This document shows positions 17,683-38,854 of a stretch of DNA of 60,477 nt, piece after piece. Origin of the DNA: Lentisphaerae bacterium RIFOXYA12_FULL_48_11 (GTDB taxonomy: Bacteria > Verrucomicrobiota > Kiritimatiellia > UBA8416 > YA12-FULL-48-11); contig MHBM01000050.1 of NCBI GenBank assembly GCA_001804885.1, positions 1 through 60,477 on the forward strand, in the 5' to 3' direction. Numbering within the stretch: the first letter of the stretch is position 1; every line of letters starts with the position of its first letter. Under the pieces are notes generated by a model that worked only from the letters and a program-made list of their open reading frames with translations, searched no databases and was not told the origin of the DNA. The translations under genes and the position numbers were made by a program.

Positions 17683-19017
17683 TTGATGCCGTTACATGAT
17701 CAAAACGAAATAGCAGCAATGGAGTGGATACAGAATCAGGTCTATGCATTATTTAAATCTCAGATTGAAACACTACCAAAAGGCTTTCGAGTAGCCATTG
17801 CAGGTGCAAACATACCCGGTCTTATAATCCTCCAATTATGCAAAACCAATAACATCCAGGTTGAAACCTTTTTTGATGATTACAAATCTGAGAAATATCA
17901 CGGAATACAAGTGGCGCCGTTCTCTACCATACCACATTTCCAACTTGACGCCGTAATTCTTGCTACCATTCGAAACGAAAAAGTGCTGCATAATAGATTA
18001 GTGCAATCAGGATATGTCGGTTATGTAATTAGTCGAAGACAAGATAACGCAACACCCTCGCAACACTCACTCCCAATGTCCAAGTCCGCCAAACCATTAA
18101 ATGGTTTACCAGGCAGAGACTGGCCTCTAAATGTGCAACTCCAGACATCCAGCGTCTGCAATGCACGCTGCATAATGTGCCCATACCAAAACTCCTGGCA
18201 CAAAAAACAACCTGGTATTATGAGTCACTCCCTCTTCGAAAAAATCATCACAGATATGGAACACTACAGAATTGGGAAGTTATGCCTGTATCTCCAGAAC
18301 GAGCCTCTCGCGGACAGGCGATGGCTTGACTTTGCAAAAACCGCTATTTCACGACTTAATTTTCAGCGCCTGGAAATCTCCACAAACTGCTCCCTCCTTG
18401 ATCAATCCAAAACCGATCAACTTTTTGACATCTTGCAAGGTATTCCTCATGAGGTATGGATCAGTTTCCATGGGTCTGATAAAAAGAACTACGAAAACAT
18501 CATGGGACTGAATTTTGATACAGTTGTAAGGAACATGGCATATTTCATAAAACAATCTCAAGAACGGAACGTTTCAGTCCGAGTGCATGCATGCGGAACA
18601 CCAGCTCGCAAAGATAAAGGGATACAGGAACTTGTCAATCGGGATGACTTCTTTGCATTCCTGAAACGATTCACCTCGGATCACGGCTTAAGCGAGTTCC
18701 CAAAGGCTTTTTTCCCTTTTCATGATAGAGCCGGCCACCTAGAGAAAAAAGATTTGTGTCTCGAATTCGTCCGCGAGAACCTGCGAAATTTCTATTGTCA
18801 TCGTATCGATACATGGATTCACATTCTTTACAATGGCGATGTAATCTCCTGTTGTAACGATTACCACCGGTCAACCGTTATGGGTAATTTGGAACAGGAG
18901 ACATTGATTGAGTTCTTTCGCTCCAAACCGTACACAGATTTCAGGGCTCAAGCACTTGGATTGACGGATTCTCCACCTGATTTCATCTGTAAACACTGTG
19001 CGGTCATAGGTGGCTAA
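17683..19017 (+). CDS. radical SAM/SPASM protein with N-terminal Rossmann-like module
   Basis: CNARCIMC (CxxxCxxC), NEPL, STNCSLL, NGDVISCCND and C-terminal CKHC. Confidence 0.85.
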   Translation: MMPLHDQNEIAAMEWIQNQVYALFKSQIETLPKGFRVAIAGANIPGLIILQLCKTNNIQVETFFDDYKSEKYHGIQVAPFSTIPHFQLDAVILATIRNEKVLHNRLVQSGYVGYVISRRQDNATPSQHSLPMSKSAKPLNGLPGRDWPLNVQLQTSSVCNARCIMCPYQNSWHKKQPGIMSHSLFEKIITDMEHYRIGKLCLYLQNEPLADRRWLDFAKTAISRLNFQRLEISTNCSLLDQSKTDQLFDILQGIPHEVWISFHGSDKKNYENIMGLNFDTVVRNMAYFIKQSQERNVSVRVHACGTPARKDKGIQELVNRDDFFAFLKRFTSDHGLSEFPKAFFPFHDRAGHLEKKDLCLEFVRENLRNFYCHRIDTWIHILYNGDVISCCNDYHRSTVMGNLEQETLIEFFRSKPYTDFRAQALGLTDSPPDFICKHCAVIGG

Positions 19018-20179
19018 AAGTGCTCATCTCACTACAGCTCAACAATCAAAGGAGAACAGTATTATGATAGAATCAAACGACTACAACAAGATTTCATGTG
19101 CCATACAATTTCTGTTGTCTCAGAAACGCTCTTATGCCATTTACGGCATGGGGAAATATACGCAATCACTAATAAAATGCTTGAAAGCTTTGAAGATTTC
19201 TTTTCCTGAATTCATTTTCGACGACAAACCCACAATCAATCTCCTCGAATCAATTCCTGTTTTCGACTCACGATCGGCACCCCTTGACAAAGTAGATGAA
19301 ATCATTCTTGGTTCTGACAAGCATCAAGAGGAAATGTATCGACGAATGCAAGAAATGTTACCAGGAAACCGCAAATGCATTGATCTGGCCACATTCCAGC
19401 TTAAATCGAATCAAACAACCACATCACCGAGCCCAAAACCAGGCCCGGGAAATATAAATTTTACCCTGCATAAGGACAATTTGAAACACTTTCATAATGC
19501 CCACGCAGGACAGCGGGCTTTTGTTGTCGGCAACGGGCCATCACTTCGTTCCATAGCCATCGAGAAACTCAAAAGCGAAATCACTTTAGGTTGCAACAGA
19601 GTCTTCCAGGGGTTTCCGATGTGGGGGTTTCACTTTAAGTATTGGACGGTCCTCGATGAAACGAACATACGACAGTCGGCAGAAGAGTACATGAGAGAAC
19701 TTCCCGACGATATGATCAAATTCATCCCCATACGTTTCTTGGACTATTTCGATCTTTCGCGTTTTCAGAATTGTCATCCGATTAACATAGCCTTCAACCC
19801 CAAACCTTTTCCAAGAATGTCCATTAGTCCAGAAATCGTCTATGACGGATGGTGTGCCGTATACTCGTTGATTCAACTGGCCATTATAATGGGTTGTCGA
19901 CCAATTTATCTTCTGGGCGTAGACTACAGATACGACATCAAGCCCAGTGAGATTGTTAATAAGCGATGGTCATCTACAGAAGGTCGCAATCATTTTATCA
20001 AGGATTACTGTAAAGCCGACAAGGGCCTAGTCTGGAATCTCCCATCCTTCGAACAAACCGATAAGGCTTTTGCATTGATGAAACACTGGAACGACAAGAA
20101 TGGACAAATCATCATGAATGCAACCCCGGGATCTGCATTGGAGGCGTTCCCTCGTACTGACTATAACTCTCTCTTTTGA
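19010..20179 (+). CDS. DUF115 / CstII-like putative sugar-acid transferase with N-terminal Rossmann-like module
   Basis: FVVGNGPSL, LGCNR, GCRPIYLLGVDY, NHF, NATPGSALEAFP. An alternative start is ATG 19064. Confidence 0.75.
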   Translation: MAKSAHLTTAQQSKENSIMIESNDYNKISCAIQFLLSQKRSYAIYGMGKYTQSLIKCLKALKISFPEFIFDDKPTINLLESIPVFDSRSAPLDKVDEIILGSDKHQEEMYRRMQEMLPGNRKCIDLATFQLKSNQTTTSPSPKPGPGNINFTLHKDNLKHFHNAHAGQRAFVVGNGPSLRSIAIEKLKSEITLGCNRVFQGFPMWGFHFKYWTVLDETNIRQSAEEYMRELPDDMIKFIPIRFLDYFDLSRFQNCHPINIAFNPKPFPRMSISPEIVYDGWCAVYSLIQLAIIMGCRPIYLLGVDYRYDIKPSEIVNKRWSSTEGRNHFIKDYCKADKGLVWNLPSFEQTDKAFALMKHWNDKNGQIIMNATPGSALEAFPRTDYNSLF

Positions 20180-20196
20180 GAGGAGAACATTACAAC

Positions 20197-21501
20197 ATGA
20201 AACGTCTTCTTGTAAATATGGGGGCAGGTTACTCCGCGCTGTTGCGCGCCGTTAATATTCTGGGAACAAACGAAACACTCTATGTATTTCAACGACTCGA
20301 CTACGAAGTCACGCCCAACGTTCACTTTATTGGCCATGCAGAATCCTTCCCTTTTCAGGATACTAAGATTCATTTAAATCGACTGAATCGTGAAGGCTTC
20401 GACGAGATTGTATTACTCTTGACCGGTGATCGCAAGAAAGACTCCGAAGCCATCCAGTTCACCAACCAAATTCAAGCGCCACACCATCTCTTCATTCAAG
20501 GCGCCAAGCTGCCGTGTTTGACTCCGGAAGCAGCATACAAATACAGTTCTGATCAGTGGGTCTCAACGAATGATAGTCCTGGCAGCACCAACAGGAAGTC
20601 GGCCACGCCCCTTTATGCGATCATTGGAACGTATAATGAAGAAGATATCGTGTACGCAACTGTAAAACACGCATTTCAACAAGGATGCAAGAAGGTTTTC
20701 CTGGTGGATAATGGAAGCAAGGATCGGACCGTGGCTGAAGCGTTGGCTGCCGGAGCCGAATTGGCACTATCATATGAAACCTCAAAGTACGTAGAACTTT
20801 TGCGAATCCGGCTCATGAACGATCTCGTAGAGCGACTTTCCCTTGAAAGTTCTTATGACGCAATTTGGTGGCTATGGCTCGATGCGGATGAGTTTCCAGA
20901 AGGACCAAACGGTCAGACGGTTGGCACCATGCTGGAACAACTGGGAGAGGAATACCGGATCGCTGGATGCTCGCTTGTCAATCACCTTCCCACATCGGAA
21001 CCCTATTATATCCAACGTTATCATCCAGGGGATTTCATGCAATATGGCGAAGCCTATAATCCTAGTTCGCTTAAAGTCAAACATTGTTCTTCATGCCACT
21101 GGAAGCATCCACTTCAAAAATTTGTGCGTCAGGCACCTATCGTGCGTTCTTTGTCCGGTTTTCACATGGCCATTTGTAAGGAGAAACTCCTGGAACCAAC
21201 TTCAACCATAGTATTTCACCATTTTCCATTCCGAGAAAAGGATTCCACGCTTCAGAAGTACGGAAAGCTCTGTGGCATCGAGGGTTCAAACGGGAATCGT
21301 GTATCATTCGATGACTCAGTCAGTCTAAATGGACGTTCCTGTATTAGGAGACGTTACGACAATCTCTTACACATCTACAATGCCCAATGGGACAAAGTAT
21401 CAATTACCCCAGGCGAAAATCCCACAACAGGCATCAAACTTTCCAAGTTTATGACTTCTGGAACGACTTGGCATCTAAGAACAGGCAATGAACGAACATA
21501 A
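20197..21501 (+). CDS. glycosyltransferase family 2 (Glyco_tranf_2_4-like)
   Basis: TYNEEDIV, VDNGSKDRT, WLWLDADEF, HHF; GAGAGGAG RBS. Confidence 0.8.
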   Translation: MKRLLVNMGAGYSALLRAVNILGTNETLYVFQRLDYEVTPNVHFIGHAESFPFQDTKIHLNRLNREGFDEIVLLLTGDRKKDSEAIQFTNQIQAPHHLFIQGAKLPCLTPEAAYKYSSDQWVSTNDSPGSTNRKSATPLYAIIGTYNEEDIVYATVKHAFQQGCKKVFLVDNGSKDRTVAEALAAGAELALSYETSKYVELLRIRLMNDLVERLSLESSYDAIWWLWLDADEFPEGPNGQTVGTMLEQLGEEYRIAGCSLVNHLPTSEPYYIQRYHPGDFMQYGEAYNPSSLKVKHCSSCHWKHPLQKFVRQAPIVRSLSGFHMAICKEKLLEPTSTIVFHHFPFREKDSTLQKYGKLCGIEGSNGNRVSFDDSVSLNGRSCIRRRYDNLLHIYNAQWDKVSITPGENPTTGIKLSKFMTSGTTWHLRTGNERT

Positions 21502-21578: not shown

Positions 21579-22733
21579 ATGCAGTCACAAAACCCGGACA
21601 AAAAGAAAATAATTGCACTACTCAAAGAACATTCACCTGCTTTCCAACTCCAGAGTGGCATTCAAGAACTTCCCAGTTCCGAGGGATTCTTGGCGAATGG
21701 GCCACGAGCAACAGACAATCTTAAACGAAAATCTCATGCATCTTCTCTTGCACTGTTGGAGTACTTGACTGTTATTATCAAGCCCGGCTTCGTGACCCTT
21801 GAAACAGGGGGGGGATGGTCAACATGCGTGTTTGCAGCGTGCGCCGCACGTCACATTTGCGTAAATCCAGATATCACGGCGAATCGCCTAATCCAGAGTT
21901 TTCTGGATACTCACGCCGTTCAGCACGGAAACATCGAATTCGCAAACGATACTTCCGATCGCGCCTTGCCCCGCCTGTTTCAAACCCCTACCCCCAGTAT
22001 TGATGTCGCCTTGATCGACGGAAATCACAGTTTCCCCATTCCCGTGGTGGATTGGCACTATATCGACTTGGTCCTCAGAAAAGGTGGCATACTTCTTGTT
22101 GACGACACCAATGTCAAATCGGTGGCAGTATTATGCGACTACCTATCCTCAGAATTAAGTTATAAAAAATGCAAAGAGATCGAACGAACTGCCGTATACG
22201 AAAAAATTCGCGAAAATCGTGTGTGGGGATGGGCTGATCAAGGGTACAACCAGAAGTCAAACGATAAGCACGAATTGCCGCCTGCTACTTTAAAAGTTGA
22301 TCGCCAGAAAGAATTGCTCAATGCCGAAATCGTCATAACTTTTTTCACGCAAACAAAAAGACGCTACGCATTATTTGGAGCAGGCAAAGTTGCCAACCAG
22401 ATTATAGAAATGATTTCCGCCAAGAAACTCATGCCACCAATCTTTGTGCTAGACAACACACCCGGAATAAACACGTTCCAAGGCTTATCGGTAATCTTGC
22501 CACACCAGATTCCTAAAATGGGACACATTGACGAAATAATCCTTGCCACCACATGCTTTCAGGATAACATGCGCTCCGAATTGAAGGCCGCAGGGTGTAA
22601 CCTGAACCCAGTGGACCTGCGGGCGAATCTCATCCCAGAACCCACAGGGCAATCCAGTCTGCCGAAAGTCACATCAACGACGGTATCGGAAACATCAAAG
22701 GTGCGAGATACTGCAACCGGTAGACAAACATGA
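21579..22733 (+). CDS. class I SAM methyltransferase (Methyltransf_24-like) with C-terminal Rossmann-like module
   Basis: TLETGGGWST, ALIDGNH, GGILLVDD; C-terminal YALFGAGK module. Confidence 0.75.
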   Translation: MQSQNPDKKKIIALLKEHSPAFQLQSGIQELPSSEGFLANGPRATDNLKRKSHASSLALLEYLTVIIKPGFVTLETGGGWSTCVFAACAARHICVNPDITANRLIQSFLDTHAVQHGNIEFANDTSDRALPRLFQTPTPSIDVALIDGNHSFPIPVVDWHYIDLVLRKGGILLVDDTNVKSVAVLCDYLSSELSYKKCKEIERTAVYEKIRENRVWGWADQGYNQKSNDKHELPPATLKVDRQKELLNAEIVITFFTQTKRRYALFGAGKVANQIIEMISAKKLMPPIFVLDNTPGINTFQGLSVILPHQIPKMGHIDEIILATTCFQDNMRSELKAAGCNLNPVDLRANLIPEPTGQSSLPKVTSTTVSETSKVRDTATGRQT

Positions 22734-22818: not shown

Positions 22819-23691
22819 GTGCTTAATCAATCTGAACATCAAAATGCTATCGAGGCCCTTGCCTTTCTTACCGTACAGAAACGGACCTATGCAATTTACG
22901 GAACCGGTCAGGTCGCCATGGAATTGCTGACAATAATACGCTCCGGCAAATACATATTTCCCGTCGCCTTCATAAAGGACAGTCCGGAAATTTCAATACT
23001 CGAAGGAATTAAAGTTATTTCGCCGGAACAAATCGACGAGACATCCATCAAAGAAGTGATACTGGGAACCAACAGTTTCCAGGAGGAAATGAGAAAAACA
23101 CTGGAATCAAATGGCCATTCCGACTTGGTACCAATTGACCTCAGCTCAAGCCGCGGCGATATCGCTGCCGCGCTGCAATCAAAACAAAGCCGCTCCGAAA
23201 CAGCCAAAGTCCGCCAGGCTCTGAAGCATTTTTGCATCGGCAACGGTCCTGACGTCGGCTTCGGCGGAGACCCGATTACAGACACGGCAATCTGTATTGA
23301 TCTGCCCAATCGCTACGCCGCATACCAGAATGCACCACAACACCTGCAGGGAGATGCACAGTCGCTCCCATGGTTCAAGGATAAGAGTATGGACTACGTT
23401 TACTCCTCTCACGTCCTTGAAGACTTCGAGAACACCAGAACTGTTCTAGATGAGTGGATTCGAGTATTGCGCGTTGGCGGCTCGTTAGTGCTTTTCTTAC
23501 CTGATGAACAGGCATATCGCAACCATTGCAAAAGCCAGAACAAACCGCCAAATGTACATCACGTTCATCTGGATTTCTCTCTGGATCTGGTGAAATCAAT
23601 CCTGCTAAAACGTGGCGACATGGAAATCATTCACGAAAAATCACCAAGCCATATTTACAGCTTCGAACTTATTGCCAGACGTATTCGATAA
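22819..23691 (+). CDS. Rossmann-like module + Methyltransf_11-like SAM methyltransferase
   Basis: YAIYGTGQ module; GPDVGFGGD, DYVYSSHVLED, EWIRVLRVGG. Confidence 0.75.
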   Translation: MLNQSEHQNAIEALAFLTVQKRTYAIYGTGQVAMELLTIIRSGKYIFPVAFIKDSPEISILEGIKVISPEQIDETSIKEVILGTNSFQEEMRKTLESNGHSDLVPIDLSSSRGDIAAALQSKQSRSETAKVRQALKHFCIGNGPDVGFGGDPITDTAICIDLPNRYAAYQNAPQHLQGDAQSLPWFKDKSMDYVYSSHVLEDFENTRTVLDEWIRVLRVGGSLVLFLPDEQAYRNHCKSQNKPPNVHHVHLDFSLDLVKSILLKRGDMEIIHEKSPSHIYSFELIARRIR

Positions 23692-23697
23692 AATATC

Positions 23698-24822
23698 ATG
23701 TCCTGTCTAGTCATCAAAAACGACGGTATCGGCGACCTAATACTGGCCTCCGGAATTATTTCAGGATTGGCTGAGATATATAATGGCGTCGATCTGGTTA
23801 CCTGCCGCGAGAACGAGGAAATCGCATCATTAATCCCTGGTGTCAATCGGATCATATACACCAGCCGGGACAATATCGCTTTGGGTACAAATCCGGCTTT
23901 TTGCGATAGCCCGGTTGACGACATCATAATGCTCAAACTGATGGAACAGCAATACCCTGTTGCAATCTCTTTGCGGCGTTACATCAGGCAAAGCACACTT
24001 GTTCTACAGCGCCTCGTAAATGCTGAGCAGAAATTCTGCTTCTGGAAATACCCGGGCAATGCAACTCAAGCCGAGGCTGAGGAATACAGCCAAGGATGGA
24101 ATCATATTGTTGACAATATACCCCTGACAAATGAAGCCGATTATTACAGAAACTGTCTGCGATTTGCACTTGGGAAAGAAATCAATCCGATCCCACAACT
24201 AAACATGCCGGCCCAACGTAAGCGGATTCCGAAGTCATTGGTTATAGGGTTATCGTCAAGCGGCAAAAACGGCTGGAATTACTTAAAATGGCTCAAAATT
24301 GCAGAGTTGTTTTACACAGATGGTTATAAGGTTCATATAGTCGGCGACAACAGATTCTCCAATGAAGTCGATTTATTCTGTAACAATTTCCCGGGCATGA
24401 AAAATCATATGGGGGAGTTAACGCTAACCGAGCTTTTAACACTTTATCAATCAACCACACATTACATGGGAAATGACACGGGTATTTCGCATTTAGCGTC
24501 CCTTACGGTGCCCTACAATCTTATCATTGTTGGCGGTGGCACAATTCCGCGATTCTTCCCATGGCCGGGGAACCATAATCAGGCTATCATCACCCATGCA
24601 ATGAAGTGTTTTGACTGTAACTGGGAGTGTAAGTATTTATCCACACTTTGCATGGAGCGTATACACACCATCGATATATTGCCTTTTGCACAACAGTTCT
24701 TTGCCGGCAAACAACCTCCCGGCTTATACAACTTGGGGCCTAAAGGAATCAAATTCACGGAGAACCTCAGTGGAACGAACAACCTATGTCTGGATGAGAT
24801 AAGTCATAATCTCAGTGAATAA
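23698..24822 (+). CDS. glycosyltransferase family 9 (heptosyltransferase-like)
   Basis: DGIGDLIL, LTELL, GNDTGISHLA. Confidence 0.85.
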   Translation: MSCLVIKNDGIGDLILASGIISGLAEIYNGVDLVTCRENEEIASLIPGVNRIIYTSRDNIALGTNPAFCDSPVDDIIMLKLMEQQYPVAISLRRYIRQSTLVLQRLVNAEQKFCFWKYPGNATQAEAEEYSQGWNHIVDNIPLTNEADYYRNCLRFALGKEINPIPQLNMPAQRKRIPKSLVIGLSSSGKNGWNYLKWLKIAELFYTDGYKVHIVGDNRFSNEVDLFCNNFPGMKNHMGELTLTELLTLYQSTTHYMGNDTGISHLASLTVPYNLIIVGGGTIPRFFPWPGNHNQAIITHAMKCFDCNWECKYLSTLCMERIHTIDILPFAQQFFAGKQPPGLYNLGPKGIKFTENLSGTNNLCLDEISHNLSE

Positions 24823-24843
24823 TCCACCTGGAGAAGAAAAACT

Positions 24844-25356
24844 ATGAGAGATCTGTCACTGCGTATTAAAGCTATGAAAATATTATGGCGTAGTTCTCCT
24901 GCTGCACTCCTCTGGATTACACGTCATTTCGGATATCTGGAGTGTCTGGTCGACGCTAAGAAATATGACCATGCAACCAATCCGAAAAGGTTGGCTGGAG
25001 CAAGATTTGATATAAAACCAATGGTTATCAATTTCTTTAAGTTTTCAAAAACTAGTCGCTTTGCTGTGTTCGGTGCAGGCAAGCATACTAAATGGCTGGA
25101 AACAATAACCGCAGCCGATATCCCTGTTAATGTTGTGGCAGTTCTGGATGATGTCCCAGATATGAATATTTTATTTTGGAAGAAACATGCAATTTTAGCG
25201 TCTAGCTTTGACCCATCGACCTGTGATGCTATCATAATCTCATCAGACTGCAGGCAAGAAGCGATGAAAAAACGTTGCGTAGAACTATATGGCGATAAAA
25301 TTCCATTGATCGACCTTTACGAGGGGTTACCACCCGGCCCTTATCAGAAAAGTTAA
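24844..25356 (+). CDS. near stand-alone Rossmann-like module protein
   Basis: FAVFGAGKHT...VLDD...DAIIISSD...; no other recognisable domain. Confidence 0.6.
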   Translation: MRDLSLRIKAMKILWRSSPAALLWITRHFGYLECLVDAKKYDHATNPKRLAGARFDIKPMVINFFKFSKTSRFAVFGAGKHTKWLETITAADIPVNVVAVLDDVPDMNILFWKKHAILASSFDPSTCDAIIISSDCRQEAMKKRCVELYGDKIPLIDLYEGLPPGPYQKS

Positions 25357-25385
25357 CGTTGCGCTGCAGAGCCGGGTATTTAACA

Positions 25386-26264
25386 ATGAATAGACATTCT
25401 ACAGTACCAAGTGACTTTGCCTTGGCGCAGCAGGCGGCAATGGAAGCTGGACGTTTGCTGCGGAAACAGCGGGCAGCCTGGAACCAGGTGACAAGTGTCA
25501 CTCAACACGATATCAAGCTGCAGGCGGACCGCGCCGCTGAAACGGTAATCCTGAAAATACTCAAAGAAGGATCACCTTACCCGATCCTGTCTGAAGAGGC
25601 TGGCGAACTGAAAGCTACCAACCCCAACTCTTCTCCACGGCTCAGTGGTGAGTCTTCCTCTTCCCTTCGTGGTCTTGGTGAACTTTGTGGTAAATCTTCC
25701 ATCTCTTCTGTCCCTCCAGACAAAGAATATCTCTGGATTGTAGATCCGCTGGACGGAACAGTAAATTATTCGCGTGGAACCCCTTTGTCAGCCGTATCAA
25801 TCGGACTATGGCAAAACAACAAACCGGTCTACGGTGTAATTTACGATTTCTGGCGTGATGAACTTTTCCACGGCGGATCTGGTTTTGGCGCATTTATGGG
25901 ATATCAGTCGATAAAAGTCAGCGGGACAACTGATCCACAACTTGCAATCCTTGCCACAGGGTTTCCCGCCAACAGCGACCACAATACTGCCCCGTTGCAG
26001 CAATTCCTGGAATCAGTACAGCGTTTCAAGAAAATTCGTTTACTCGGGACAGCAGCCCTTTCCATGGCCTACGTGGCCTGCGGTCGTACCGATGCATATA
26101 TGGAACGGGATATTATGCTTTGGGACATCGCCGCCGGCGCGGCAATAGTCCAGGGCGCTGGAGGAGTGATCTCTATCGAACCATCCAGTAGAGTACCTAA
26201 CGCCTGCTTGACGAAAGCCGCCGCATCCATCGATTTACTCAACGCCCTAGAAAGCAAAAAATGA
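25386..26264 (+). CDS. inositol monophosphatase family phosphatase with an in-frame repeat insertion
   Basis: ILSEE, WIVDPLDGTVNY, WDIAAG; a Ser-rich insert of about 30 aa lies between SEE and WIVDP. Confidence 0.9.
   Translation: MNRHSTVPSDFALAQQAAMEAGRLLRKQRAAWNQVTSVTQHDIKLQADRAAETVILKILKEGSPYPILSEEAGELKATNPNSSPRLSGESSSSLRGLGELCGKSSISSVPPDKEYLWIVDPLDGTVNYSRGTPLSAVSIGLWQNNKPVYGVIYDFWRDELFHGGSGFGAFMGYQSIKVSGTTDPQLAILATGFPANSDHNTAPLQQFLESVQRFKKIRLLGTAALSMAYVACGRTDAYMERDIMLWDIAAGAAIVQGAGGVISIEPSSRVPNACLTKAAASIDLLNALESKK
25628..25712. repeat. CTTGGTGAACTTTGTGGT-type repeat inside the IMPase CDS
   Basis: 25673-25691 is the exact reverse complement of intergenic 9495-9513 (19 nt). Confidence 0.8.
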
Positions 26265-26309
26265 GAAGTATGTCCGGCAGGAATCCGACGCGACGCGCAG
26301 GATGATCAC

Positions 26310-26372
26310 CCACCAGGACACTATGAACACCAAGAAGGCTAATACCTTTGTGTACTTCATGCCTCCATGGCA
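26310..26372. repeat. intergenic palindromic repeat of the same family
   Basis: CACCAGGACACTATGAACACCAAG ... CTTTGTGTACTTCATGCCTCCATGG. Confidence 0.55.
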
Positions 26373-26426
26373 CCTCGTTTGCTTACCTTAAATACACATA
26401 AGAACCATGATTTTAAGGGAAACAGT

Positions 26427-28954: not shown

Positions 28955-28988
28955 TATATGTTTAGTTACGATATGGAGCGTTGCACCG

Positions 28989-29465
28989 ATGATTCATTGT
29001 CGATTGCGGGATTGGAAGAATATTCCAGGAATGGCCTCACACAAAGCCTGGAAAACAGCTTTTTCATGGCTGGAAACTCACGCTTCCACGGCTGATGAAG
29101 GAATACACACCCTCTATTGCGACGGATTCCATGCAAAGGTCATGAGTTATGACCTCATACCACGAGAGCTGGCAAAGTTTGAAAGCCATCGGGAAACGAT
29201 TGATATACAGTTCACTGTCGCCGGAGCAGAAGGAATAGAAATCTCCACCCCTGAAAGCCTCGCCTCATTAAACGACTATGATCCTGTTAAGGAGGTCGAA
29301 CACTTCAAGACCCCTGATACAATTCATGGTTGGGTGAATAATTGTCAGGGATATTTCACAATACTATTTGCCGGTGAACCGCATATGCCCAAATTAATGG
29401 TTCCTGGAAACAAATCAGTTAAAAAAGTCGTCATCAAGTTGCCTGTAAAAATCCTGCAACCATGA
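28989..29465 (+). CDS. YhcH/YjgK/YiaL (NanQ/TabA-like) protein
   Basis: FESHRETIDIQF, ILFAGEPHMP, KKVVIK. Confidence 0.85.
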   Translation: MIHCRLRDWKNIPGMASHKAWKTAFSWLETHASTADEGIHTLYCDGFHAKVMSYDLIPRELAKFESHRETIDIQFTVAGAEGIEISTPESLASLNDYDPVKEVEHFKTPDTIHGWVNNCQGYFTILFAGEPHMPKLMVPGNKSVKKVVIKLPVKILQP

Positions 29466-30376: not shown

Positions 30377-31500
30377 ATACAGACAACACCACACCAGCCA
30401 TAAACGTTTACGGAAGTCTGTTTTCGCTCGCACAACAGAGAACTGAAATTCTAAGCCGCCTCCTTGCCGCCAAGGCTAAAACAGTGGCCATATGGGGTGC
30501 CGGAATAAATGGAGATTTTGTCGCCCGCGCTCTTCTTGATTCTCCCGTAAAAATCGTCTCTTTCTATGATCGCGCCCTTGCCGGCAAACGGATTCTGGGA
30601 ATACCAGTACTGCCTGAACCCGACAGCGTGAAAGAACTGGATGCCATTCTTATCTGTATGAACGGTCCAGTAGAAGCCATCAAAAGAATCACCGGAATCT
30701 GCAAGACATCAAAAACAACCTGTATTCAGGTCATAAATATTGAACACGGCATGGCGACCACAACATGGACGGCAGCCGCAAAACATCATCGACTGGACGA
30801 ATACGCCGGGACCATGAAAGGACAGCGTTGTTTCGTCGTTGGAAATGGTCCCTCATTGAATAAGATCGACATGAGCCGCCTGGCCGGTGAGATCGTTATC
30901 GGATCAAACCGGTGTTTCATCGGTTTTGAAAAATGGGGTGTCCAGTTTCCGTTCTGGGGAGTCGAAGACATGGAAGTCGGGGGATGGCAGTCGGAAGGTT
31001 GGAAGAAAATGCGGGGAACCGTCAAGTTTGTTCCTGCGGATATGCTTAAATTCGCCGATCCAAACGATACTGACGTGTGTCCTATCCAACTCTTTAGAAC
31101 TAATTTCACCAGTACATATCCATTGTTCAGCATTTATCCCGACCTTCTTTTTTCCGGACGCACGGTGACATATGTTCTGCTCCAGCTTGCGGCAATTATG
31201 GGATGTTCTCCCATTTATCTCATTGGAGTCGATTTCCGTTTTACTCAGTCAAACGTTGCCCCGGAACCACACAGCGAGGTCTGGTGGCAAAAGGGAAAAG
31301 ATCAGAATCATTTTGACCCTTCATACATTCCCGAAGGTCGGTTCCTGCACCAACCCCATCTGGACCTGCAAAGACTGGCATTTATGAGCGCGCGTCAAAG
31401 CGCCAAGCTACACGGATTCGAGATATTTAACGCCACTCCCGGCTCCGCACTTGATGTCTTTCCGCATGTAGAGTATGCAAGCTTGTTCACAAAGAAATAA
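30373..31500 (+). CDS. second DUF115 / CstII-like putative transferase with N-terminal Rossmann-like module
   Basis: FVVGNGPSLNKID, GSNR, GCSPIYLIGVDF, NHF, NATPGSALDVFP. Confidence 0.75.
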   Translation: MNTDNTTPAINVYGSLFSLAQQRTEILSRLLAAKAKTVAIWGAGINGDFVARALLDSPVKIVSFYDRALAGKRILGIPVLPEPDSVKELDAILICMNGPVEAIKRITGICKTSKTTCIQVINIEHGMATTTWTAAAKHHRLDEYAGTMKGQRCFVVGNGPSLNKIDMSRLAGEIVIGSNRCFIGFEKWGVQFPFWGVEDMEVGGWQSEGWKKMRGTVKFVPADMLKFADPNDTDVCPIQLFRTNFTSTYPLFSIYPDLLFSGRTVTYVLLQLAAIMGCSPIYLIGVDFRFTQSNVAPEPHSEVWWQKGKDQNHFDPSYIPEGRFLHQPHLDLQRLAFMSARQSAKLHGFEIFNATPGSALDVFPHVEYASLFTKK

Positions 31501-31737: not shown

Positions 31738-32994
31738 ATGTCACAAAATAACACATCCATCGTCCATACAAGAAATCTCTACACAAAACGGATTCAACCG
31801 TTCATGGGCCGCCCGATGGTCAAGATCCTCACAGGAATGCGACGCGTCGGCAAGAGTTGTCTGCTGCACCTGCTACACGACGAGCTTCTGAAAAAAGGCA
31901 CAAAACATTCAAACATTTGCTTCATCGACAAGGAATCCCTTGATTTCGACACCATCCGAACAGACCATAACCTGCACGAGTTTGTCATCGCCACCTTCAA
32001 GAAATGCAAGGGACCCAGGACTCTCCTGATCGACGAGGTTCAACTCATAGAAAAATGGGAACGCGCAATAGGCTCTCTGGCAGGTAAAGGCGACATGGAT
32101 ATTGTGCTAACCGGTTCCAACGCACAGCTCCTTTCCTCAGAATTGGCAACCCGGCTGTCCGGACGTTATATCGAATTCCCTATCTTCGGCCTGGGTTTCT
32201 CGGAATTCCTGACATTCCGAGGTCGGGCCGTCGAAAACCGTGAAACGGAATTCCTCCGATTCCTGCGATATGGAGGACTTCCAGTGCTGCACCACATGGA
32301 AATGACCGACGAGGTCATTTTCCAATGTCTAAACTCCATTTACAGCACAATATTACTCAAAGACATTGTAAGCCGGCATTCCATACGTCAAGTGCCACTG
32401 CTCGAAAATATAATCCGTTTCGTATTCGATAATGTCGGACAACCCATCTCGGCCAACCGTATCGCCGCACATTTGAAGTCTCAACGCCTGCATGTTGGCG
32501 TCGATACGGTAATCAACTATCTCGGGTACTTCCAGGAGGCCTTGATCACCCACAAAGCGGCACGTTATGACATCAAAGGACGACGGCTCCTCGAAACGTA
32601 CGACAAGCATTACATTGGAGACCTCGGTCTGCGCCACGCCCTGCTGGGTTATCGGGAATCTGACATCTCGCACCTACTGGAGAACGTAGTCTACCTGGAA
32701 CTGCGCAGAAGAGGCTACAACGTAGCAATCGGCAAATGGGGCAACCGGGAGATTGACTTCATAGCCTTAAGAGAAAAGGAAAAAATATACATCCAAGTCG
32801 CGTATCTGCTGGCCACACCTGAAACCGTACAACGCGAGTTCAAGCCCCTTCAGGAAACGCCTGACAACTATCCCAAACTTGTGCTCAGCATGGATCCACT
32901 GTTTGGCGACGATCATGAAGGCGTCCGGCGCATGCACCTGCTCGATTTCCTTCTCCAAACAACATCCGACGAACAACGTGCTGCGGCAAAATGA
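31738..32994 (+). CDS. AAA_14 + DUF4143 ATPase (copy 2)
   Basis: GMRRVGKS, LLIDEVQ, TGSN, SGR, DLGLRH, LENVVY, EIDF...YIQVAY. Confidence 0.9.
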   Translation: MSQNNTSIVHTRNLYTKRIQPFMGRPMVKILTGMRRVGKSCLLHLLHDELLKKGTKHSNICFIDKESLDFDTIRTDHNLHEFVIATFKKCKGPRTLLIDEVQLIEKWERAIGSLAGKGDMDIVLTGSNAQLLSSELATRLSGRYIEFPIFGLGFSEFLTFRGRAVENRETEFLRFLRYGGLPVLHHMEMTDEVIFQCLNSIYSTILLKDIVSRHSIRQVPLLENIIRFVFDNVGQPISANRIAAHLKSQRLHVGVDTVINYLGYFQEALITHKAARYDIKGRRLLETYDKHYIGDLGLRHALLGYRESDISHLLENVVYLELRRRGYNVAIGKWGNREIDFIALREKEKIYIQVAYLLATPETVQREFKPLQETPDNYPKLVLSMDPLFGDDHEGVRRMHLLDFLLQTTSDEQRAAAK

Positions 32995-33102
32995 CCATAA
33001 CTCCTATAAAGCCAGCACATCAGGCCGCAACAGAAGCCGGAGAACTGGAAGCTATTTGCCTTGGTTGCCTGAACTTGCTATCTTCGACTAATAATTATCG
33101 TT

Positions 33103-33297
33103 ATGAAATCACCAGCTGAACAGAAAATAATACAGATCGACATCACAAACGCGTGCATCCATAAATGTTCCAACTGCACGCGCCATTGCGGTCATCATGA
33201 TAAACCTTTTTTCATGGATCTTAACACTTTCAAGAAGGCCGTGGATTCACTTGATGGATTTCGGGGCATGGTATCTTTGCTCGTAGGCTGGGTTTGA
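33103..33297 (+). pseudogene. truncated 5' copy of the radical SAM gene at 35153
   Basis: 51 of the first 57 aa are identical to the 35153 product; homology ends at 33273 and the frame stops 8 codons later. Confidence 0.9.
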
Positions 33298-33302
33298 AAA
33301 CG

Positions 33303-33331
33303 TTGACAATAATAAATCTATGGTTTATCTT
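33303..33331 (+). promoter_or_regulatory. sigma70-like promoter of the abiE operon
   Basis: TTGACA-17-TATCTT; short ATAAA / TTTAT inverted motifs nearby. Confidence 0.55.
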
Positions 33332-33390
33332 TAATTGTTTTAACGAACTGAATAGCGCACTTGGTTTGTTATAGGAAAAGAGAATAAACC

Positions 33391-34173
33391 TTGAGTATAC
33401 ATCACAAGACAAAGCTAAACAAGCTATTGCAGGCTATACATAGAAATGGAGTGGTGACGACCACTCGCCTGCAGGAACTCGCTATATCGCCACAGCTTGC
33501 AAGGATGTACGTCAAGAACGGCTGGCTGCAAAAACTCGGTGTAGGCGCTTTCGCAAGGGTTGGTGAATCCCCTGATTGGCTTGGTGGCGTCCATGCACTT
33601 CAATCCCAACTCGGATTGACGGTACACGTTGCAGCGGTAAGCGCCTTGGAGCTACAGGGACGAGCTCACTTCGTCCCGCTTGGCACGGGACGAAGCGTGA
33701 CGCTTGTCAGCGACCAAAGGGAGAGTCTCCCCAGGTGGTTCACCACGCATAAGTGGTCTGTCATTCTTAACCATCGCCGTCTTGGGTTATTCTCCTCTCT
33801 CCCTGGCGATAGCATCACACAGCTCGACTGTGGCGGGTTCTCTGTGCAGATATCTCCCCCAGAGAGGGCTATACTGGAGGAACTGCAACTCATACAGAGC
33901 AACAGTGCCCTCGAACATGCCATCCTGCTCATGGAGGGGTTGTCTACCCTCCGTCCAGGTATATTGCAGCAGTTGCTGGAGCTATGTACTTCAGTTAAGG
34001 CCAAGCGATTGCTCCTCTGGTCAGGCGAACACTGCCAGCACACCTGGATGAACCGGATTGACGTCACGAAGGTGGATCTTGGCGCCGGAAAGCGGCAGGT
34101 GTTCAAAGGGGGCGTTCTCGATCCCAAGTACCTGATCACGGTTCCAGGACCGGAGGAACTGCCAAATGTTTGA
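33391..34173 (+). CDS. abiEi: type IV TA AbiEi-family antitoxin
   Basis: KLNKLL start, GWLQKLGVGAF, SALELQGRAHF, SPPERAILE, SVKAKRL, DLGAGKR. Confidence 0.9.
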   Translation: MSIHHKTKLNKLLQAIHRNGVVTTTRLQELAISPQLARMYVKNGWLQKLGVGAFARVGESPDWLGGVHALQSQLGLTVHVAAVSALELQGRAHFVPLGTGRSVTLVSDQRESLPRWFTTHKWSVILNHRRLGLFSSLPGDSITQLDCGGFSVQISPPERAILEELQLIQSNSALEHAILLMEGLSTLRPGILQQLLELCTSVKAKRLLLWSGEHCQHTWMNRIDVTKVDLGAGKRQVFKGGVLDPKYLITVPGPEELPNV

Positions 34174-35077
34174 TCCCCGATTCCAAGCGCAAGTCTTTCT
34201 TGGTATTCGCTGTCTTCCTGAAGTTGCGAAGCATAACTGCTTCGCCCTTAAGGGCGGAACGGCAATCAATCTGTTTGTTCACGATTTGCCCAGGGTATCC
34301 GTGGATATCGATCTAACTTACCTTCCTTTGAAGTCACGCGATGAGTCACTCCAGGAAATCAGCGATACCCTCCAGCATATCAAGACAGAGATTGAAAGCT
34401 TAATTCCCGGCACTCGCGTTGCAGTGCGGCACGTGCAGGGATATGCCGCCAAGCTATCCGTTGCAACGGATTACACGGAGGTCAAGATTGAGCCCAATCT
34501 TGTTTTGCGTGGCGCCCTTTCTGCCCCCACTGTCCGAGAACTTTCCCCTCTCGCCCAGAAGCGCTTTAGATCAAGCGCCAGGATACAGACGCTGGCTAAC
34601 GCCGATCTTTACGGCGGAAAACTGTGTGCAGCTCTCGACCGGCAACATCCGAGGGATCTGTTCGACATCCGCCTTCTGTTGATGGACGAAGGCCTTACGC
34701 CTGCCATCCGTCGCGCATTTGTCGTCTATCTTGCCAGCCACACACGCCCGATCCATGAACTCCTGCAACCAAACCTAATCGACATGACCGATGCCTTCGA
34801 ACGACAGTTCGTCGGCATGACCATGGAGCCTGTAACTCTTGATGAGCTTGTCTGTACCCGTGAAAAGCTCATAGACATCCTGGTTCCGTCTCTGGACAAC
34901 AGCGAGAAGACATTTCTGCTCTCCATGAAGTCAGGCGATCCGGACTGGAGTGTCCTTGGTATCGAGAATCTGGAACGAATGCCGGCACTGCAGTGGAAGC
35001 TTATGAACATTCGCAGTATGGATGCTCGAAAACGTCAGGTACAATTGAGGTTGCTGCAGGAATTGCTATCCGCATAA
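34166..35077 (+). CDS. abiEii: type IV TA AbiEii-family nucleotidyltransferase toxin
   Basis: FALKGGTAINLF, RVSVDIDL, GKLCAALDRQHPRDLFD. Confidence 0.9.
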   Translation: MFDPRFQAQVFLGIRCLPEVAKHNCFALKGGTAINLFVHDLPRVSVDIDLTYLPLKSRDESLQEISDTLQHIKTEIESLIPGTRVAVRHVQGYAAKLSVATDYTEVKIEPNLVLRGALSAPTVRELSPLAQKRFRSSARIQTLANADLYGGKLCAALDRQHPRDLFDIRLLLMDEGLTPAIRRAFVVYLASHTRPIHELLQPNLIDMTDAFERQFVGMTMEPVTLDELVCTREKLIDILVPSLDNSEKTFLLSMKSGDPDWSVLGIENLERMPALQWKLMNIRSMDARKRQVQLRLLQELLSA

Positions 35078-35152: not shown

Positions 35153-37033
35153 ATGAAATCACCGGCTGATCAGAAAATTATTCAGATAGACATTACGAAC
35201 GCCTGCATACACAGGTGTTCCAACTGCACACGCCACTGTGGACATCATGATAAACCTTTTTTCATGGATCTTAACACTTTCAAGAAAGCCGTGGATTCAC
35301 TGGTGAAGCATCCCGGAATGGTAGGCATCATGGGCGGCGAGCCGACAATCCATCCCGATTTTGAAAAATTTATCGAATATTACCGCAGCAAAATTGGCCC
35401 GAAACAGAATTTCGAATTCGCCCGGAAACCGCTTGAAAACTTTACCGAACACGCCGAAGAGAATCTGGCGTTCGATACCACAAAACGTCGCGGCCTCTTC
35501 TCATCACTCGGAAATAAATACTACGAACATTTTGAAATCATACAGGACACCTTCTCATACCAGTGCCTTAATGATCATACCAATCCCGGCATGCATCAGG
35601 CACTGCTGGTAGCGCGGAAAGATCTCGGAATACCTGATGATGAATGGATAAAACTCCGGGACAAATGCTGGATCCAGAATCTCTGGAGTTCCTCCATCAC
35701 GCCTAAAGGGGCTTTCTTCTGCGAAGTGGCCGCCTCGCTGGATATGCTCTTTGACGGACCAGGCGGCTGGCCGATCGAACCCGACTGGTGGAAACGCACA
35801 CCCGCTGAGTTCGGCGACCAGCTCAAGTGGTGCGAACTCTGTGGAGCCGCACTCCAGGTACCCAGGCGGCGTGCCAACGAGGAAACAGACGACGTCTCGC
35901 CAACTATGTTCGAAAAACTTACCGCCGCCAATAGTCCGAAAACCCGCGAGCACAGAGTGGAAGTCATAAATACAACCGGCTATAATCCGGAAACATACAA
36001 ATGCAAACCGTCAAACGAATGGTATCTGCCTGAAGAAGATAATAAACAACGTATAAATGGCACTAACCACTCGCTATATCCACAGCATATTGATGCAATA
36101 ATAGTCTCGCGAAACGGCAAAACCATACAACACCTCGCCCAGTCAGCCGCCGAACAGTTCACCAATGTCATCCTGGCGTTGAACTCCAATCCGGACGACA
36201 TGAAACATCCGGCATCGAACATCAGCGTCTTAACCGTACCAAGCGCGTCGCGTGATGCACTCATCGCAGCAGCCGTAAAACAACTGAACCCGAAAAGCTG
36301 GGTCGCCGTTCTGGATGAAGACGTGGTGCTGTCGAAAGGTTTTGCAGACCAGCTGAAACGCTGGATACTCAATCCAGGCTGTATTTACCTGTTCAACCGC
36401 CACAACACATGGGGACTGGGCCACCGTCCTCTGATCCATACGGCTCACAATCAATCTCCGGACGATCTACGCGCCACCGCTTTTTGCTCGCTGTTCCACC
36501 CGAGAGCGCATGCAGTTCGCGATCTGATGAAAAATATTTCCAGCAGTGACCCGGTAAATCCCAGCAAACCGGAACACTGGCCTGACGGTAAACAAATAGA
36601 TATGCACTGGTTCTTCCTGCAACCGGATGCGCTGGCGGAACGCAAACAAACAGGCCGGGAAATGGCCGCGCACGCCGTATCTCTCTGGCAGGCCCTTCAG
36701 GATTGCCACAGAAAGATTGCACTCTACGGCGCCGGACACCACACACGCTGGTTCCTTCAACTTCTGGAAATTAAAAAGCTCCCGGCGCCTGTGGCTATTT
36801 TTGACGACAACCCGTTCTGCCAGGAAATAAACGGTATTCCCGTAATGCAACCTCAGACTGCCGATAGAAATTCATTCGATACGGTAGTCCTCTCCGTAGA
36901 CCCGGGCAGAATGACCGAGATTCTCAAGAACCGCTGCAAAGAACTCTGGGGAAATGCCTGTAACGTTGTGGAATTGTACCGTCAGTACCCTGAAGGGCGA
37001 TTTATGAAAATATTACCAAATCCGGGTCATTAA
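35153..37033 (+). CDS. radical SAM protein with C-terminal Rossmann-like module
   Basis: CIHRCSNC, GGEPTIHP, GAFFCE, CELCG; C-terminal IALYGAGHHT module. Confidence 0.85.
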   Translation: MKSPADQKIIQIDITNACIHRCSNCTRHCGHHDKPFFMDLNTFKKAVDSLVKHPGMVGIMGGEPTIHPDFEKFIEYYRSKIGPKQNFEFARKPLENFTEHAEENLAFDTTKRRGLFSSLGNKYYEHFEIIQDTFSYQCLNDHTNPGMHQALLVARKDLGIPDDEWIKLRDKCWIQNLWSSSITPKGAFFCEVAASLDMLFDGPGGWPIEPDWWKRTPAEFGDQLKWCELCGAALQVPRRRANEETDDVSPTMFEKLTAANSPKTREHRVEVINTTGYNPETYKCKPSNEWYLPEEDNKQRINGTNHSLYPQHIDAIIVSRNGKTIQHLAQSAAEQFTNVILALNSNPDDMKHPASNISVLTVPSASRDALIAAAVKQLNPKSWVAVLDEDVVLSKGFADQLKRWILNPGCIYLFNRHNTWGLGHRPLIHTAHNQSPDDLRATAFCSLFHPRAHAVRDLMKNISSSDPVNPSKPEHWPDGKQIDMHWFFLQPDALAERKQTGREMAAHAVSLWQALQDCHRKIALYGAGHHTRWFLQLLEIKKLPAPVAIFDDNPFCQEINGIPVMQPQTADRNSFDTVVLSVDPGRMTEILKNRCKELWGNACNVVELYRQYPEGRFMKILPNPGH

Positions 37034-37036
37034 CAT

Positions 37037-38854
37037 ATGTCAGCACCCGTATCTACTACTAACGCAAATTCCGGCACTAAAACCGGACATAACAGTCAAC
37101 TTGTCTTTACCACACGATTGATCCAGCTCTATTACCAACCAAATATCCATGTCATACCGGTCGAATTTCCCCTCCCCGCTAATGCAGCTGCAGTCCCTGA
37201 AAGTTTTATTACATGGCTATGTTCAGACCTGGCAAGCGTACCTGAAATAATCAATCAACTGGCCATCCCTGTCCTGTCGGTCAGTAATGAATCTGTTACC
37301 GCAGCCATTCTGAATTCCCGCATAGTCGCTTTTCGCGGATCCGAAAAAGATGCGCCCTCATGGCTATCTCTATGTCTCCGGACAGGACGGATTCCGGTAC
37401 TGACAGGTAATGCAATAACCCTGCCTTTCGCAGACAAGATTGACTACCGTAATACCGTATTCCTTCTTGGTGAGGAACCTGTGGAACTCGCAATGCTCAA
37501 ACAGTTTGACTCTATTCCAGAAAACGAGCTGCAAGCGATTGCGCAACGTTGTATCGAAATAGGAAACAACTACTTTACCCGGGCACAAATTGAAAAGCAG
37601 ATTCTCCTGATAAAGGCAAACGACCAGGTCGATGAACAAAATAAAAGAAATCAGGTAATACCATCTGAACCACCCAACCAATTCCCGGCCTTCACGCCCG
37701 ACGGTCAACTGATACGCGAAAACGACCTCATGCGATCGATGTGGATGGAACTGAGCCGGCAATTCCCGCCCCAAAGCTCCAAACCAATTATTTGTTTCGG
37801 GGCTGGACGATTCTTGCAACGGTTTCTGAACTGCATCGACGGCATGTCATACGGGCCAAGCATCCTGGGAGTCGCAGATGATAACGCGACAGAGGAACAG
37901 ACACTCAACGGGATTCCCGTAAGGAAACCTTCTGATTTCTCAAACACAGATTTTTCGGCAGTGCTGCTGGCAACTGACTCAATCGAAGATATACTCGCGG
38001 AACGCTGTAAGAAAGAATATGGAGAACGGGTTCAGCTTATACGGCCCAGTCAAAGCATGACCATAACTCCTGTATCTCAAGCCAATATTGCATCAACAAT
38101 TCAGGCCCGCTCTACGAAAATCCTGCATACGCCAAAACGAATCACACTTCCACGCAAACTGGAAGCCATCATTGTGTGCGCCGGCTACAGCGATATTTTA
38201 TCATGGACGCTTTCGTGGAACCGGGAACAATTTGACAACATTGCCATAGTAACATCATCCGCAGATACCAGAACACAGGAGATCGCCCGACAGCATAATG
38301 CCAGACTGATCATATCCGACCGGTATCGTGACAGCTCAGCAGGATTTAACAAAGGCAAAATGCTCAACGACGGAGTGACAGCTCTGGATATGGATGACTG
38401 GCTGCTTATCACCGACGCAGACATCCTCTTCCTCCCCAATATGCGCCAACGGGTAACGCAACGTATGCTTCACCCGGACTGTCTGTACTACGCAACCCGT
38501 GTAGACGCTCCTGAAAAGCATACTGAAGAATGGCTCACGTCGTTTATTAAAAACCCTCAAGTGACCAACTCACTGCCATTCAATCAGCCGGGTCGCAACC
38601 GTATGCCTTGGGGGTATTTCCAGCTTGTTAACGCCAGATCGGAGAACCTGACCAGCCATAATGGAAAAATTTTCAGCGAGGAGTTCGAGACCGCCTGTGA
38701 TATTGATTACGCCTTCCAGGAACAATGGCATCCGACAATGAAAATACTTTTGCCTGAACTGACTGTCCATATCCCACACGGCAAAGAAGGCACAAACTGG
38801 ACAGGAAGGAAAAGCCCGCCGATTAACTACCTGCAAAGTCCTGCCGAGAACTAA
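37037..38854 (+). CDS. multidomain glycosyltransferase: exostosin-like segment + Rossmann-like module + GT-A domain
   Basis: GRIPVL...LPFADKIDY (GT47-like); IICFGAGR module; FNKGKMLN, WLLITDADI, GYFQL. Confidence 0.6.
   Translation: MSAPVSTTNANSGTKTGHNSQLVFTTRLIQLYYQPNIHVIPVEFPLPANAAAVPESFITWLCSDLASVPEIINQLAIPVLSVSNESVTAAILNSRIVAFRGSEKDAPSWLSLCLRTGRIPVLTGNAITLPFADKIDYRNTVFLLGEEPVELAMLKQFDSIPENELQAIAQRCIEIGNNYFTRAQIEKQILLIKANDQVDEQNKRNQVIPSEPPNQFPAFTPDGQLIRENDLMRSMWMELSRQFPPQSSKPIICFGAGRFLQRFLNCIDGMSYGPSILGVADDNATEEQTLNGIPVRKPSDFSNTDFSAVLLATDSIEDILAERCKKEYGERVQLIRPSQSMTITPVSQANIASTIQARSTKILHTPKRITLPRKLEAIIVCAGYSDILSWTLSWNREQFDNIAIVTSSADTRTQEIARQHNARLIISDRYRDSSAGFNKGKMLNDGVTALDMDDWLLITDADILFLPNMRQRVTQRMLHPDCLYYATRVDAPEKHTEEWLTSFIKNPQVTNSLPFNQPGRNRMPWGYFQLVNARSENLTSHNGKIFSEEFETACDIDYAFQEQWHPTMKILLPELTVHIPHGKEGTNWTGRKSPPINYLQSPAEN

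Follow-up and report, generated by a model that had tools for sequence, protein, structure and literature searches.

Why should eight enzymes of a single bacterial gene island, with differing catalytic domains, all carry one and the same small additional module? The question is raised by contig MHBM01000050.1 of Lentisphaerae bacterium RIFOXYA12_FULL_48_11, of which a stretch of 60,477 nucleotides (nt) was analysed (hereafter the window, to the whole of which all coordinates refer). Between 17.7 and 38.9 kb of the window, eight open reading frames (ORFs) on the + strand encode products that each contain one copy of a module of 95–100 amino acids (aa). An original prediction had assigned to these genes a recurring Rossmann-like module of about 80 aa; all eight ORFs are present, and their copies, one apiece, lie at the N terminus, at the C terminus, in the middle or nearly alone, as had been claimed. 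The single recurring module thus stands, and its length was put a little too low. We find that the eight copies descend from a common origin, that the module is a distinct, unannotated branch of the PglD_N/CoA_binding_3 group within the Rossmann superfamily, and that it recurs as many copies per island in several genomes. The copies are listed below, each with the E-value that it reaches in a search with a profile made solely from relatives in other organisms, relatives which had originally been fetched using the window profile.

17743–18042, + strand: module copy 1, aa 21–120 of orf17683 (17683–19017), N-terminal to radical S-adenosylmethionine (SAM) and SPASM domains (E 7.3e-7).
19100–19393, + strand: module copy 2, aa 31–128 of orf19010 (19010–20179), N-terminal to an MptE-like/DUF115 domain (E 2.2e-21).
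22332–22625, + strand: module copy 3, aa 252–349 of orf21579 (21579–22733), C-terminal to a Methyltransf_24 domain (E 2.7e-17), with copy 4 as its nearest module.
22855–23148, + strand: module copy 4, aa 13–110 of orf22819 (22819–23691), N-terminal to a Methyltransf_11 domain (E 4.6e-18).
25024–25353, + strand: module copy 5 together with the C-terminal tail LYEGLPPGPYQKS, aa 61–170 of the 170-aa orf24844 (24844–25356), the module proper being aa 61–160 (E 5.3e-28).
30451–30747, + strand: module copy 6, the most divergent of the eight, aa 27–125 of orf30373 (30373–31500), N-terminal to an MptE-like/DUF115 domain (E 7.9e-5).
36674–36982, + strand: module copy 7, aa 508–610 of orf35153 (35153–37033), C-terminal to a radical SAM domain and an unassigned middle region (E 3.5e-32).
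37754–38053, + strand: module copy 8, aa 240–339 of orf37037 (37037–38854), between an unassigned N-terminal region and a GT2-like glycosyltransferase (GT) domain (E 2.3e-20).

The consensus of the copies is h-A-h-(F/Y)-G-A-G-x-H-T ... h-h-D-D-x-P ... G-I-P-V ... D-A-I-x-L-S-(S/T)-D ... h-D-L, where h is a hydrophobic residue, and the Gly loop is at its most degenerate in copy 1 (G-A-N). The motif pattern of the original prediction holds well beyond the window, with 163 members keeping GAGxHT, (V/I)LDD, GIPV and DAIxLS(S/T)D. On inspection of the sequences, the window modules are tied to their partners by linkers of 20–40 aa rich in S/T/P or Q/N. In orf19010, for example, an S/T/P-rich linker follows the module in an MptE-like/DUF115 layout, and in orf37037 long low-complexity linkers lie on both sides; orf24844 is the stand-alone form, with a helical N terminus of about 60 aa ahead of the module.

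The common origin of the copies is evident from profile searches against the 50,345 six-frame ORFs of the 5.68-Mb genome. A profile built from all eight copies, as had been proposed together with the prediction, matches exactly these eight, and the other Rossmann enzymes of the genome, including the GFO/IDH/MocA protein and the 2-hydroxyacid dehydrogenase of the same island, are unmatched by the module profile at E<1. When each copy in turn is left out of the profile, six are found at E 7e-10 to 8e-21 and orf17683 at E 8.4e-4; orf30373 is missed by its leave-one-out profile against these ORFs. The profile of relatives from other organisms finds all eight, at E 3.5e-32 to 7.9e-5, with the rest of the genome silent at E<1, and in orf30373 the N terminus of the NCBIfam model NeuD_NnaD is matched at E 0.0019. 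The missed orf30373, the modest value of orf17683 and the weak matches of generic NAD(P)-Rossmann families to the relatives are what might be expected if there were no shared module and if a generic GxG...D Rossmann fingerprint had turned up by chance in unrelated proteins. We regard this as highly improbable, however, given the recovery of six copies by profiles without their own sequence, the recovery of all eight by the non-window profile, and the absence of any match at E<1 to the many true Rossmann enzymes of the genome; for at least seven copies, the leave-one-out and non-window profiles rule out chance resemblance.

Pairwise identity between copies is 12–36%, which marks them as old paralogues rather than recent DNA repeats. 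The best match of most window modules is the orthologous enzyme in another genome. The modules of orf19010, orf21579 and orf22819 are exceptions, each having the others among its best matches (phmmer E 1e-16 to 5e-19) despite their attachment at different ends of three different catalytic domains, indicating that the module has been shuffled within the island. A ninth, degenerate copy at the N terminus of the GT2 protein orf20176 was considered and is not supported, since no hidden Markov model match was obtained with filters off and hhalign aligned just 17 columns. This region (window 20176–20616) comprises about 140 aa ahead of the GT2 domain and has a module-like look, with a GAG loop and an FDEIVLLL strand (LLVNMGAG...FDEIVLLL); it is an unrelated Rossmann-like stub, or else a copy too far degraded to be recognised.

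To which fold and lineage does the module belong? An AlphaFold model of orf24844 made with a 46-sequence alignment (the single-sequence prediction had a mean predicted local distance difference test score, pLDDT, of 40) exceeds pLDDT 90 over aa 70–160 and has the order β1-αA-β2-β3-β4-αE-β5. A β1-loop-αA-β2 unit whose loop reads GxGxx(G/A/T) and whose β2 ends in an acidic residue, the mark of an NAD(P)-Rossmann domain, is found in the consensus, in the structural neighbours and in the matches of the relatives. Foldseek against the PDB returns solely NAD(P)-Rossmann domains (aspartate-semialdehyde dehydrogenase, Rex, D-amino-acid dehydrogenase and GFO-type enzymes), 3NKL and VioB, with E-values of 0.01–0.08, none at or below 1e-3. 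The match to 3NKL has a probability of 1.00 and a template modelling (TM) score of 0.53 on the target, and that to VioB (7TXP) spans 88 columns at a root-mean-square deviation (rmsd) of 3.0. The Rossmann-like fold originally proposed is therefore upheld by both the model and its structural neighbours.

Sequence profiles narrow the placement. Among all PDB sequences, the best match of the module profile is 3NKL (3nkl_A; E 1.3e-7 over 75 positions), the accessory domain, on its own, of a PglF/WbpM-type "UDP-D-quinovosamine 4-dehydrogenase". Neisseria PglB (4M98) is matched in its PglD-type acetyltransferase domain at E 0.028, and the TrkA/KTN proteins 3L4B and 2G1U are weak matches at E 0.06–0.07. 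When 100 of the best relatives were compared with Pfam, 27 matched PglD_N (E<1e-3, best 7.5e-14), six Methyltransf_14 (best 9.9e-8), four CoA_binding and four TrkA_N. Together with the 3NKL match, these results support the suggested kinship to CoA_binding_3 and to the C-terminal folds of sugar C-methyltransferases. In the window itself, no copy reaches a curated threshold of Pfam or NCBIfam, the nearest being orf35153 to PglD_N (PF17836; 22.5 bits, E 1.8e-4, gathering score 23.4), with the other copies at or below 13.4 bits or unmatched; orf35153 is also the sole window match to Methyltransf_14 (PF08484), at 13.1 bits (E 0.084) for a cut-off of 23.5 bits. A genome-wide search for CoA_binding_3 (PF13727) finds three other genes, on contigs C148, C71 and C4, and none of the eight. 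Neither these proteins nor the canonical PglD_N protein of the genome (contig C245), all of them on other contigs, are matched by the module profile. In an hhalign comparison with the genome's own PglD-type protein, GAGKHT...LDD of the module is in register with GAGGHA...LLD. In relatives consisting of the module only, the β1-αA-β2 part also matches N termini that bind dinucleotides, among them Gp_dh_N, DapB_N and GFO_IDH_MocA, over the first 30–40 positions, and TrkA_N.

Conservation points to the likely ligand site. Across 163 members the most conserved positions are G77 (99%), G79 (98%), D102 (95%), D103 (81%), D135 (79%) and D128 (75%), and the most conserved residues sit in the β1 loop and at the ends of β2 and β4; the C-terminal edges of the strands are the ligand-binding side of Rossmann folds. 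In VioB, the corresponding Gly loop lies within 4 Å of the ribose and β-phosphate of deoxythymidine diphosphate (dTDP), and the β2 Asp hydrogen-bonds the ribose (PMC9271549). Since the near-invariant residues of the module are the Gly loop and the strand-2 Asp, the nucleoside diphosphate contacts of VioB and PglD, a nucleotide or nucleotide sugar is the best-supported ligand; of the two ligands originally suggested, nucleotide sugars thus gain support and a lipid carrier gains none. The PF13727 domain of WbaP is reported to bind uridine nucleotides and uridine diphosphate (UDP)-sugars and to form most of the dimer interface, and a domain of this type is also present in PglF-like dehydratases (PMC10942596). 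The inhibition of full-length WbaP by uridine monophosphate (UMP) has a profile suggestive of a site other than the active one (PMC10942596).

When orf24844 or the eight-copy alignment served as query in word-indexed searches for homologues, the return was essentially self alone; searching 1.84 billion representative proteins exhaustively with a profile gave 2,433 clusters at E≤1e-3, 222 of them at E≤1e-10. Counted over the 150 best relatives, the module has a C-terminal position in 94 cases, an internal one in 57 and an N-terminal one in 35, and in 17 cases the protein is shorter than 200 aa. Tandem arrays of two or three modules occur in 42 of the 150. Several relatives have no other Pfam domain and consist of two or three tandem copies, as in P0033, P0122, P0058, P0016, P0011, P0031 and P0057, proteins of 229–559 aa from outside the window; such proteins are candidates for hubs or multivalent binders. 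The partners in 100 relatives include GT2 (23), GT1 (nine), radical SAM (nine), FkbM (five) and MptE-like domains (four), and also class I methyltransferases.

A scan of 185,579 species genomes yielded 39 loci, a set that is biased towards the orf24844-like subfamily because the narrower alignment of this subfamily was used, the broad 46-sequence alignment lacking a sufficiently conserved stretch. Nearly all of these loci belong to Verrucomicrobiota (Victivallales, Kiritimatiellae and Pontiellaceae) and Planctomycetota (Phycisphaerales), with one from the Desulfobacterales, and in 20 of the 39 there are two to eight module-bearing ORFs within flanks of about 10 kb. In the phylum of the window, the module is present in nine of 301 sampled genomes, with one to nine copies each (eight in the genome of the window), and in Planctomycetota it is present in 17 of 251 genomes, so that it is confined to 3–7% of the genomes sampled across both phyla. 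In several genomes the copies are clustered: seven in about 20 kb in a member of the Victivallales, eight on one contig in a member of the Pontiellaceae and five in 18 kb of a complete Desulfobacterales chromosome.

The catalytic partners in the window are those expected from the original prediction, which had the module attached to radical SAM, DUF115, methyltransferase and GT domains. Pfam assigns radical SAM and SPASM domains to orf17683, MptE-like/DUF115 domains to orf19010 and orf30373, Methyltransf_24 to orf21579, Methyltransf_11 to orf22819 and a radical SAM domain to orf35153; the GT2 match of orf37037 is slightly below threshold (21.8 against 23.3 bits). With the recovery of every copy by profile, these assignments support one portable module on differing catalytic domains. 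The surrounding genes form two features, as judged by ORF and Pfam annotation.

9762–38854, + strand: co-oriented glycan-tailoring island, holding all eight module copies.
25359–30376, + strand: activated-sugar supply genes without the module, encoding an IMPase-like phosphatase, a GFO/IDH/MocA and SIS fusion, a CTP_transf_3 cytidylyltransferase, YhcH and a 2-hydroxyacid dehydrogenase.

Besides this cassette, the island genes that lack the module encode two large tetratricopeptide repeat (TPR) proteins, one of them with an FkbM domain, a TylF methyltransferase, a GT2 and a GT9. Homologues of the supply genes adjoin module-bearing genes in related loci. The cassette genes are 41–69% identical to genes of the nearest loci, L001, L003 and L005, where cytidylyltransferase, GFO and SIS fusion, 2-hydroxyacid dehydrogenase and phosphatase genes adjoin module-bearing DUF115 and methyltransferase genes. 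A condensing synthase is not among the genes of the cassette (25359–30376). The island is broken at 31738–35077, between orf30373 and orf35153, by the gene of an AAA_14/DUF4143 ATPase together with a toxin-antitoxin pair, AbiEi/AbiEii; three further AAA_14/DUF4143 genes are found in the window at 6562–7746, 41988–43220 and 44357–45601. A radical SAM gene without the module (38891–40129, − strand) is convergent to the end of the island.

The near stand-alone protein, orf24844, lies directly downstream of the GT9 gene (23698–24822) and in the same frame, the two being separated by one TAA and 21 nt (window 24820–24846). The possibility that orf24844 is the broken-off C terminus of the GT9 was rejected on account of its own ribosome-binding site and of stand-alone proteins of like layout elsewhere. 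The two are treated as separate genes because a GGAG ribosome-binding site precedes the ATG of orf24844; an ancestral GT9-module fusion may nonetheless have existed. The orf24844 module is 49–53% identical to the C-terminal modules of larger L001 enzymes, and other organisms have proteins of 130–220 aa with the layout of orf24844, in which a variable, partly hydrophobic N-terminal helix is followed by the module. A role of orf24844 as hub or regulator is no more than plausible, as stand-alone and module-only proteins recur elsewhere. Its tail LYEGLPPGPYQKS (window 25300–25353) is also not unique: in 40 of the 150 best relatives its PxGP(Y/F/T) core occurs among the final 15 residues, in every case directly after a C-terminal module. 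A degenerate version of the tail is seen at the C terminus of orf35153 (LYRQYPEGRFMK). The tail might serve for docking, as a peptide, or else cover the putative ligand site like a lid.

What, then, might the module do for these enzymes? Judged from its sequence and its relatives, it may be an autonomous nucleotide-binding domain of about 95 aa, common to the pathway, which recognises the nucleoside mono- or diphosphate (NMP/NDP) handle of the activated sugar of the island, lends specificity and probably dimerises, a proposal to which we give an even chance. Each tailoring enzyme, be it a radical SAM enzyme, a methyltransferase, a DUF115 transferase or a GT2, would bind through its tethered module the nucleotide part of a ligand common to the pathway, for which the NMP/NDP handle on the activated sugar from the adjacent cytidylyltransferase cassette is the most probable candidate. 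Generic catalytic domains would gain pathway specificity through the module, dimerisation would probably follow the example of the related WbaP/PglF domain, and orf24844 would be a free binder of the same ligand. Such a shared nucleotide-binding domain fits best because the near-invariant residues hold the nucleotide in the closest characterised relatives, because the partners use or modify nucleotide sugars, and because the nearest islands include a cytidylyltransferase cassette. Several observations weigh against it. A cytidylyltransferase cassette lies beside the module in just four of the 39 related loci, so that a ligand specific to cytidine monophosphate (CMP) is not general. The second Gly is missing from orf17683, and acidic positions are altered in orf21579, orf22819 and orf30373; no window copy reaches a curated Pfam or NCBIfam threshold, and the weak Foldseek values mean that structure backs the fold class only. 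The variable position, flexible linkers and tandem or lone copies differ from the fixed half-active-site geometry of PglD_N, and half of the partners in the window are SAM enzymes, which could act either on a nucleotide sugar or on the finished glycan. Flexible tethering, tandem arrays, module-only proteins and copy numbers that go by island would fit an assembly or sensor role equally well, or better.

An assembly role would have modules pair as homo- or heterodimers and thereby gather the island enzymes into one complex, with the stand-alone and module-only proteins as hubs and nucleotide binding either structural or vestigial. The clustering of copies in one island in several genomes, the proteins made of two or three modules alone, the tandem copies in 42 of the 150 top relatives and the variable position on flexible linkers are all consistent with this, as are the related WbaP domain, which supplies most of the dimer contacts (PMC10942596), and the TPR-repeat proteins, possible scaffolds, that open the island of the window and those of L001, L004 and L005. 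However, the residues conserved family-wide form the ligand edge and not a surface patch, and identities of 12–36% between copies make a single shared heterotypic interface less likely; we consider assembly rather unlikely. It is more doubtful still that the module is an allosteric sensor, Rex- or KTN/RCK-like, which would bind NAD(H), a CMP or UMP end-product or a similar compound and switch the attached enzyme, such that all steps would answer to one metabolite. Rex repressors are among the structural neighbours, TrkA/KTN proteins (3L4B and 2G1U) are weak PDB profile matches, some relatives match CoA_binding (Rex type) and TrkA_N, the inhibition of WbaP by UMP suggests a site beyond the active site (PMC10942596), and a tethered, position-independent layout would suit a regulatory domain; the Rex and TrkA matches are weak, though (E 0.01–0.08), the closest sequence relatives are of the substrate-binding PglD_N type and the 3NKL type, and nothing ties the island to redox control. 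Nucleotide binding, assembly and sensing are not mutually exclusive. A broader and equally speculative picture, which we would expect to prove wrong, makes the module, over and above any binding of substrate, the docking unit of a horizontally mobile glycan-tailoring island, in which a metabolon of many unrelated catalytic domains and module-only hubs would hand the nucleotide-activated sugar along, with the conserved C-terminal LPPGPYxK tail and the TPR proteins from the start of the islands as a second docking pair.

The fold and lineage of the module are already known. What appears to be new is the subfamily, together with the promiscuity of its fusions, which involve radical SAM, methyltransferase, DUF115 and GT domains, and a distribution that is rare yet clustered, with many copies per island; in the literature on PF17836 and PglD_N we found no account of such promiscuous use. 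As current models are blank in all eight proteins and yet some 2,400 clusters carry the module, a dedicated profile would annotate many proteins now seen as a radical SAM enzyme, methyltransferase or GT with an extension of unknown nature. Glycan-tailoring islands of a kind that recurs in Verrucomicrobiota, Planctomycetota and Desulfobacterota would be flagged by it as well. If the module does read the nucleotide handle of one activated sugar, it marks those island enzymes that act at the level of the nucleotide sugar, something that is difficult to foresee by other means where radical SAM enzymes and methyltransferases are concerned. For a search for the ligand, the small stand-alone orf24844 would be a convenient reagent. 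If the role is instead one of assembly, the island would offer an example of a glycan metabolon that a bacterium builds by repeating one adaptor domain.

One of the known systems nearest to the module is PglD_N (PF17836), the N-terminal domain of the PglD/NeuD/VioB/PerB class I sugar N-acetyltransferases. PglD_N is likewise a domain of about 80–90 aa with a five-stranded sheet and flanking helices, and the two have a common motif register, GAG(G/K)H(A/T)...(L)DD...G.PV. Unlike PglD_N, the module never precedes a left-handed β-helix acetyltransferase domain, and no Hexapep domain is found by Pfam or NCBIfam in the eight window proteins; flexible linkers tether it to radical SAM, methyltransferase, DUF115 and GT enzymes, terminally on one side or the other or internally, and it also occurs in tandem or alone. 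CoA_binding_3 (PF13727), from large phosphoglycosyl transferases such as WbaP and from PglF/WbpM-type dehydratases, resembles the module in being a non-catalytic Rossmann-like accessory domain of glycan enzymes. It spans about 175 positions, however, against the 95–100 aa of the module, and follows a four-helix membrane bundle, whereas the window protein sequences contain no long hydrophobic N-terminal bundle; its partners are phosphoglycosyl transferase or dehydratase catalytic domains, in place of radical SAM, methyltransferase, DUF115 and GT2 domains. Methyltransf_14 (PF08484), with which sugar C-methyltransferases such as TcaB9 end, is also an accessory domain of Rossmann-like type, here joined to a SAM methyltransferase whose substrate is an NDP-sugar, and it binds the dTDP-sugar. 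At about 160 aa it is larger than the module, and its position is fixed at the C terminus where that of the module varies. The Rex/CoA_binding (PF02629) and KTN/RCK (TrkA_N) domains, finally, are small, tethered, dimerising nucleotide-binding Rossmann domains whose sequence and structure matches to the module are weak. The module has neither a DNA-binding domain nor a channel as partner and belongs to a glycan-tailoring context.

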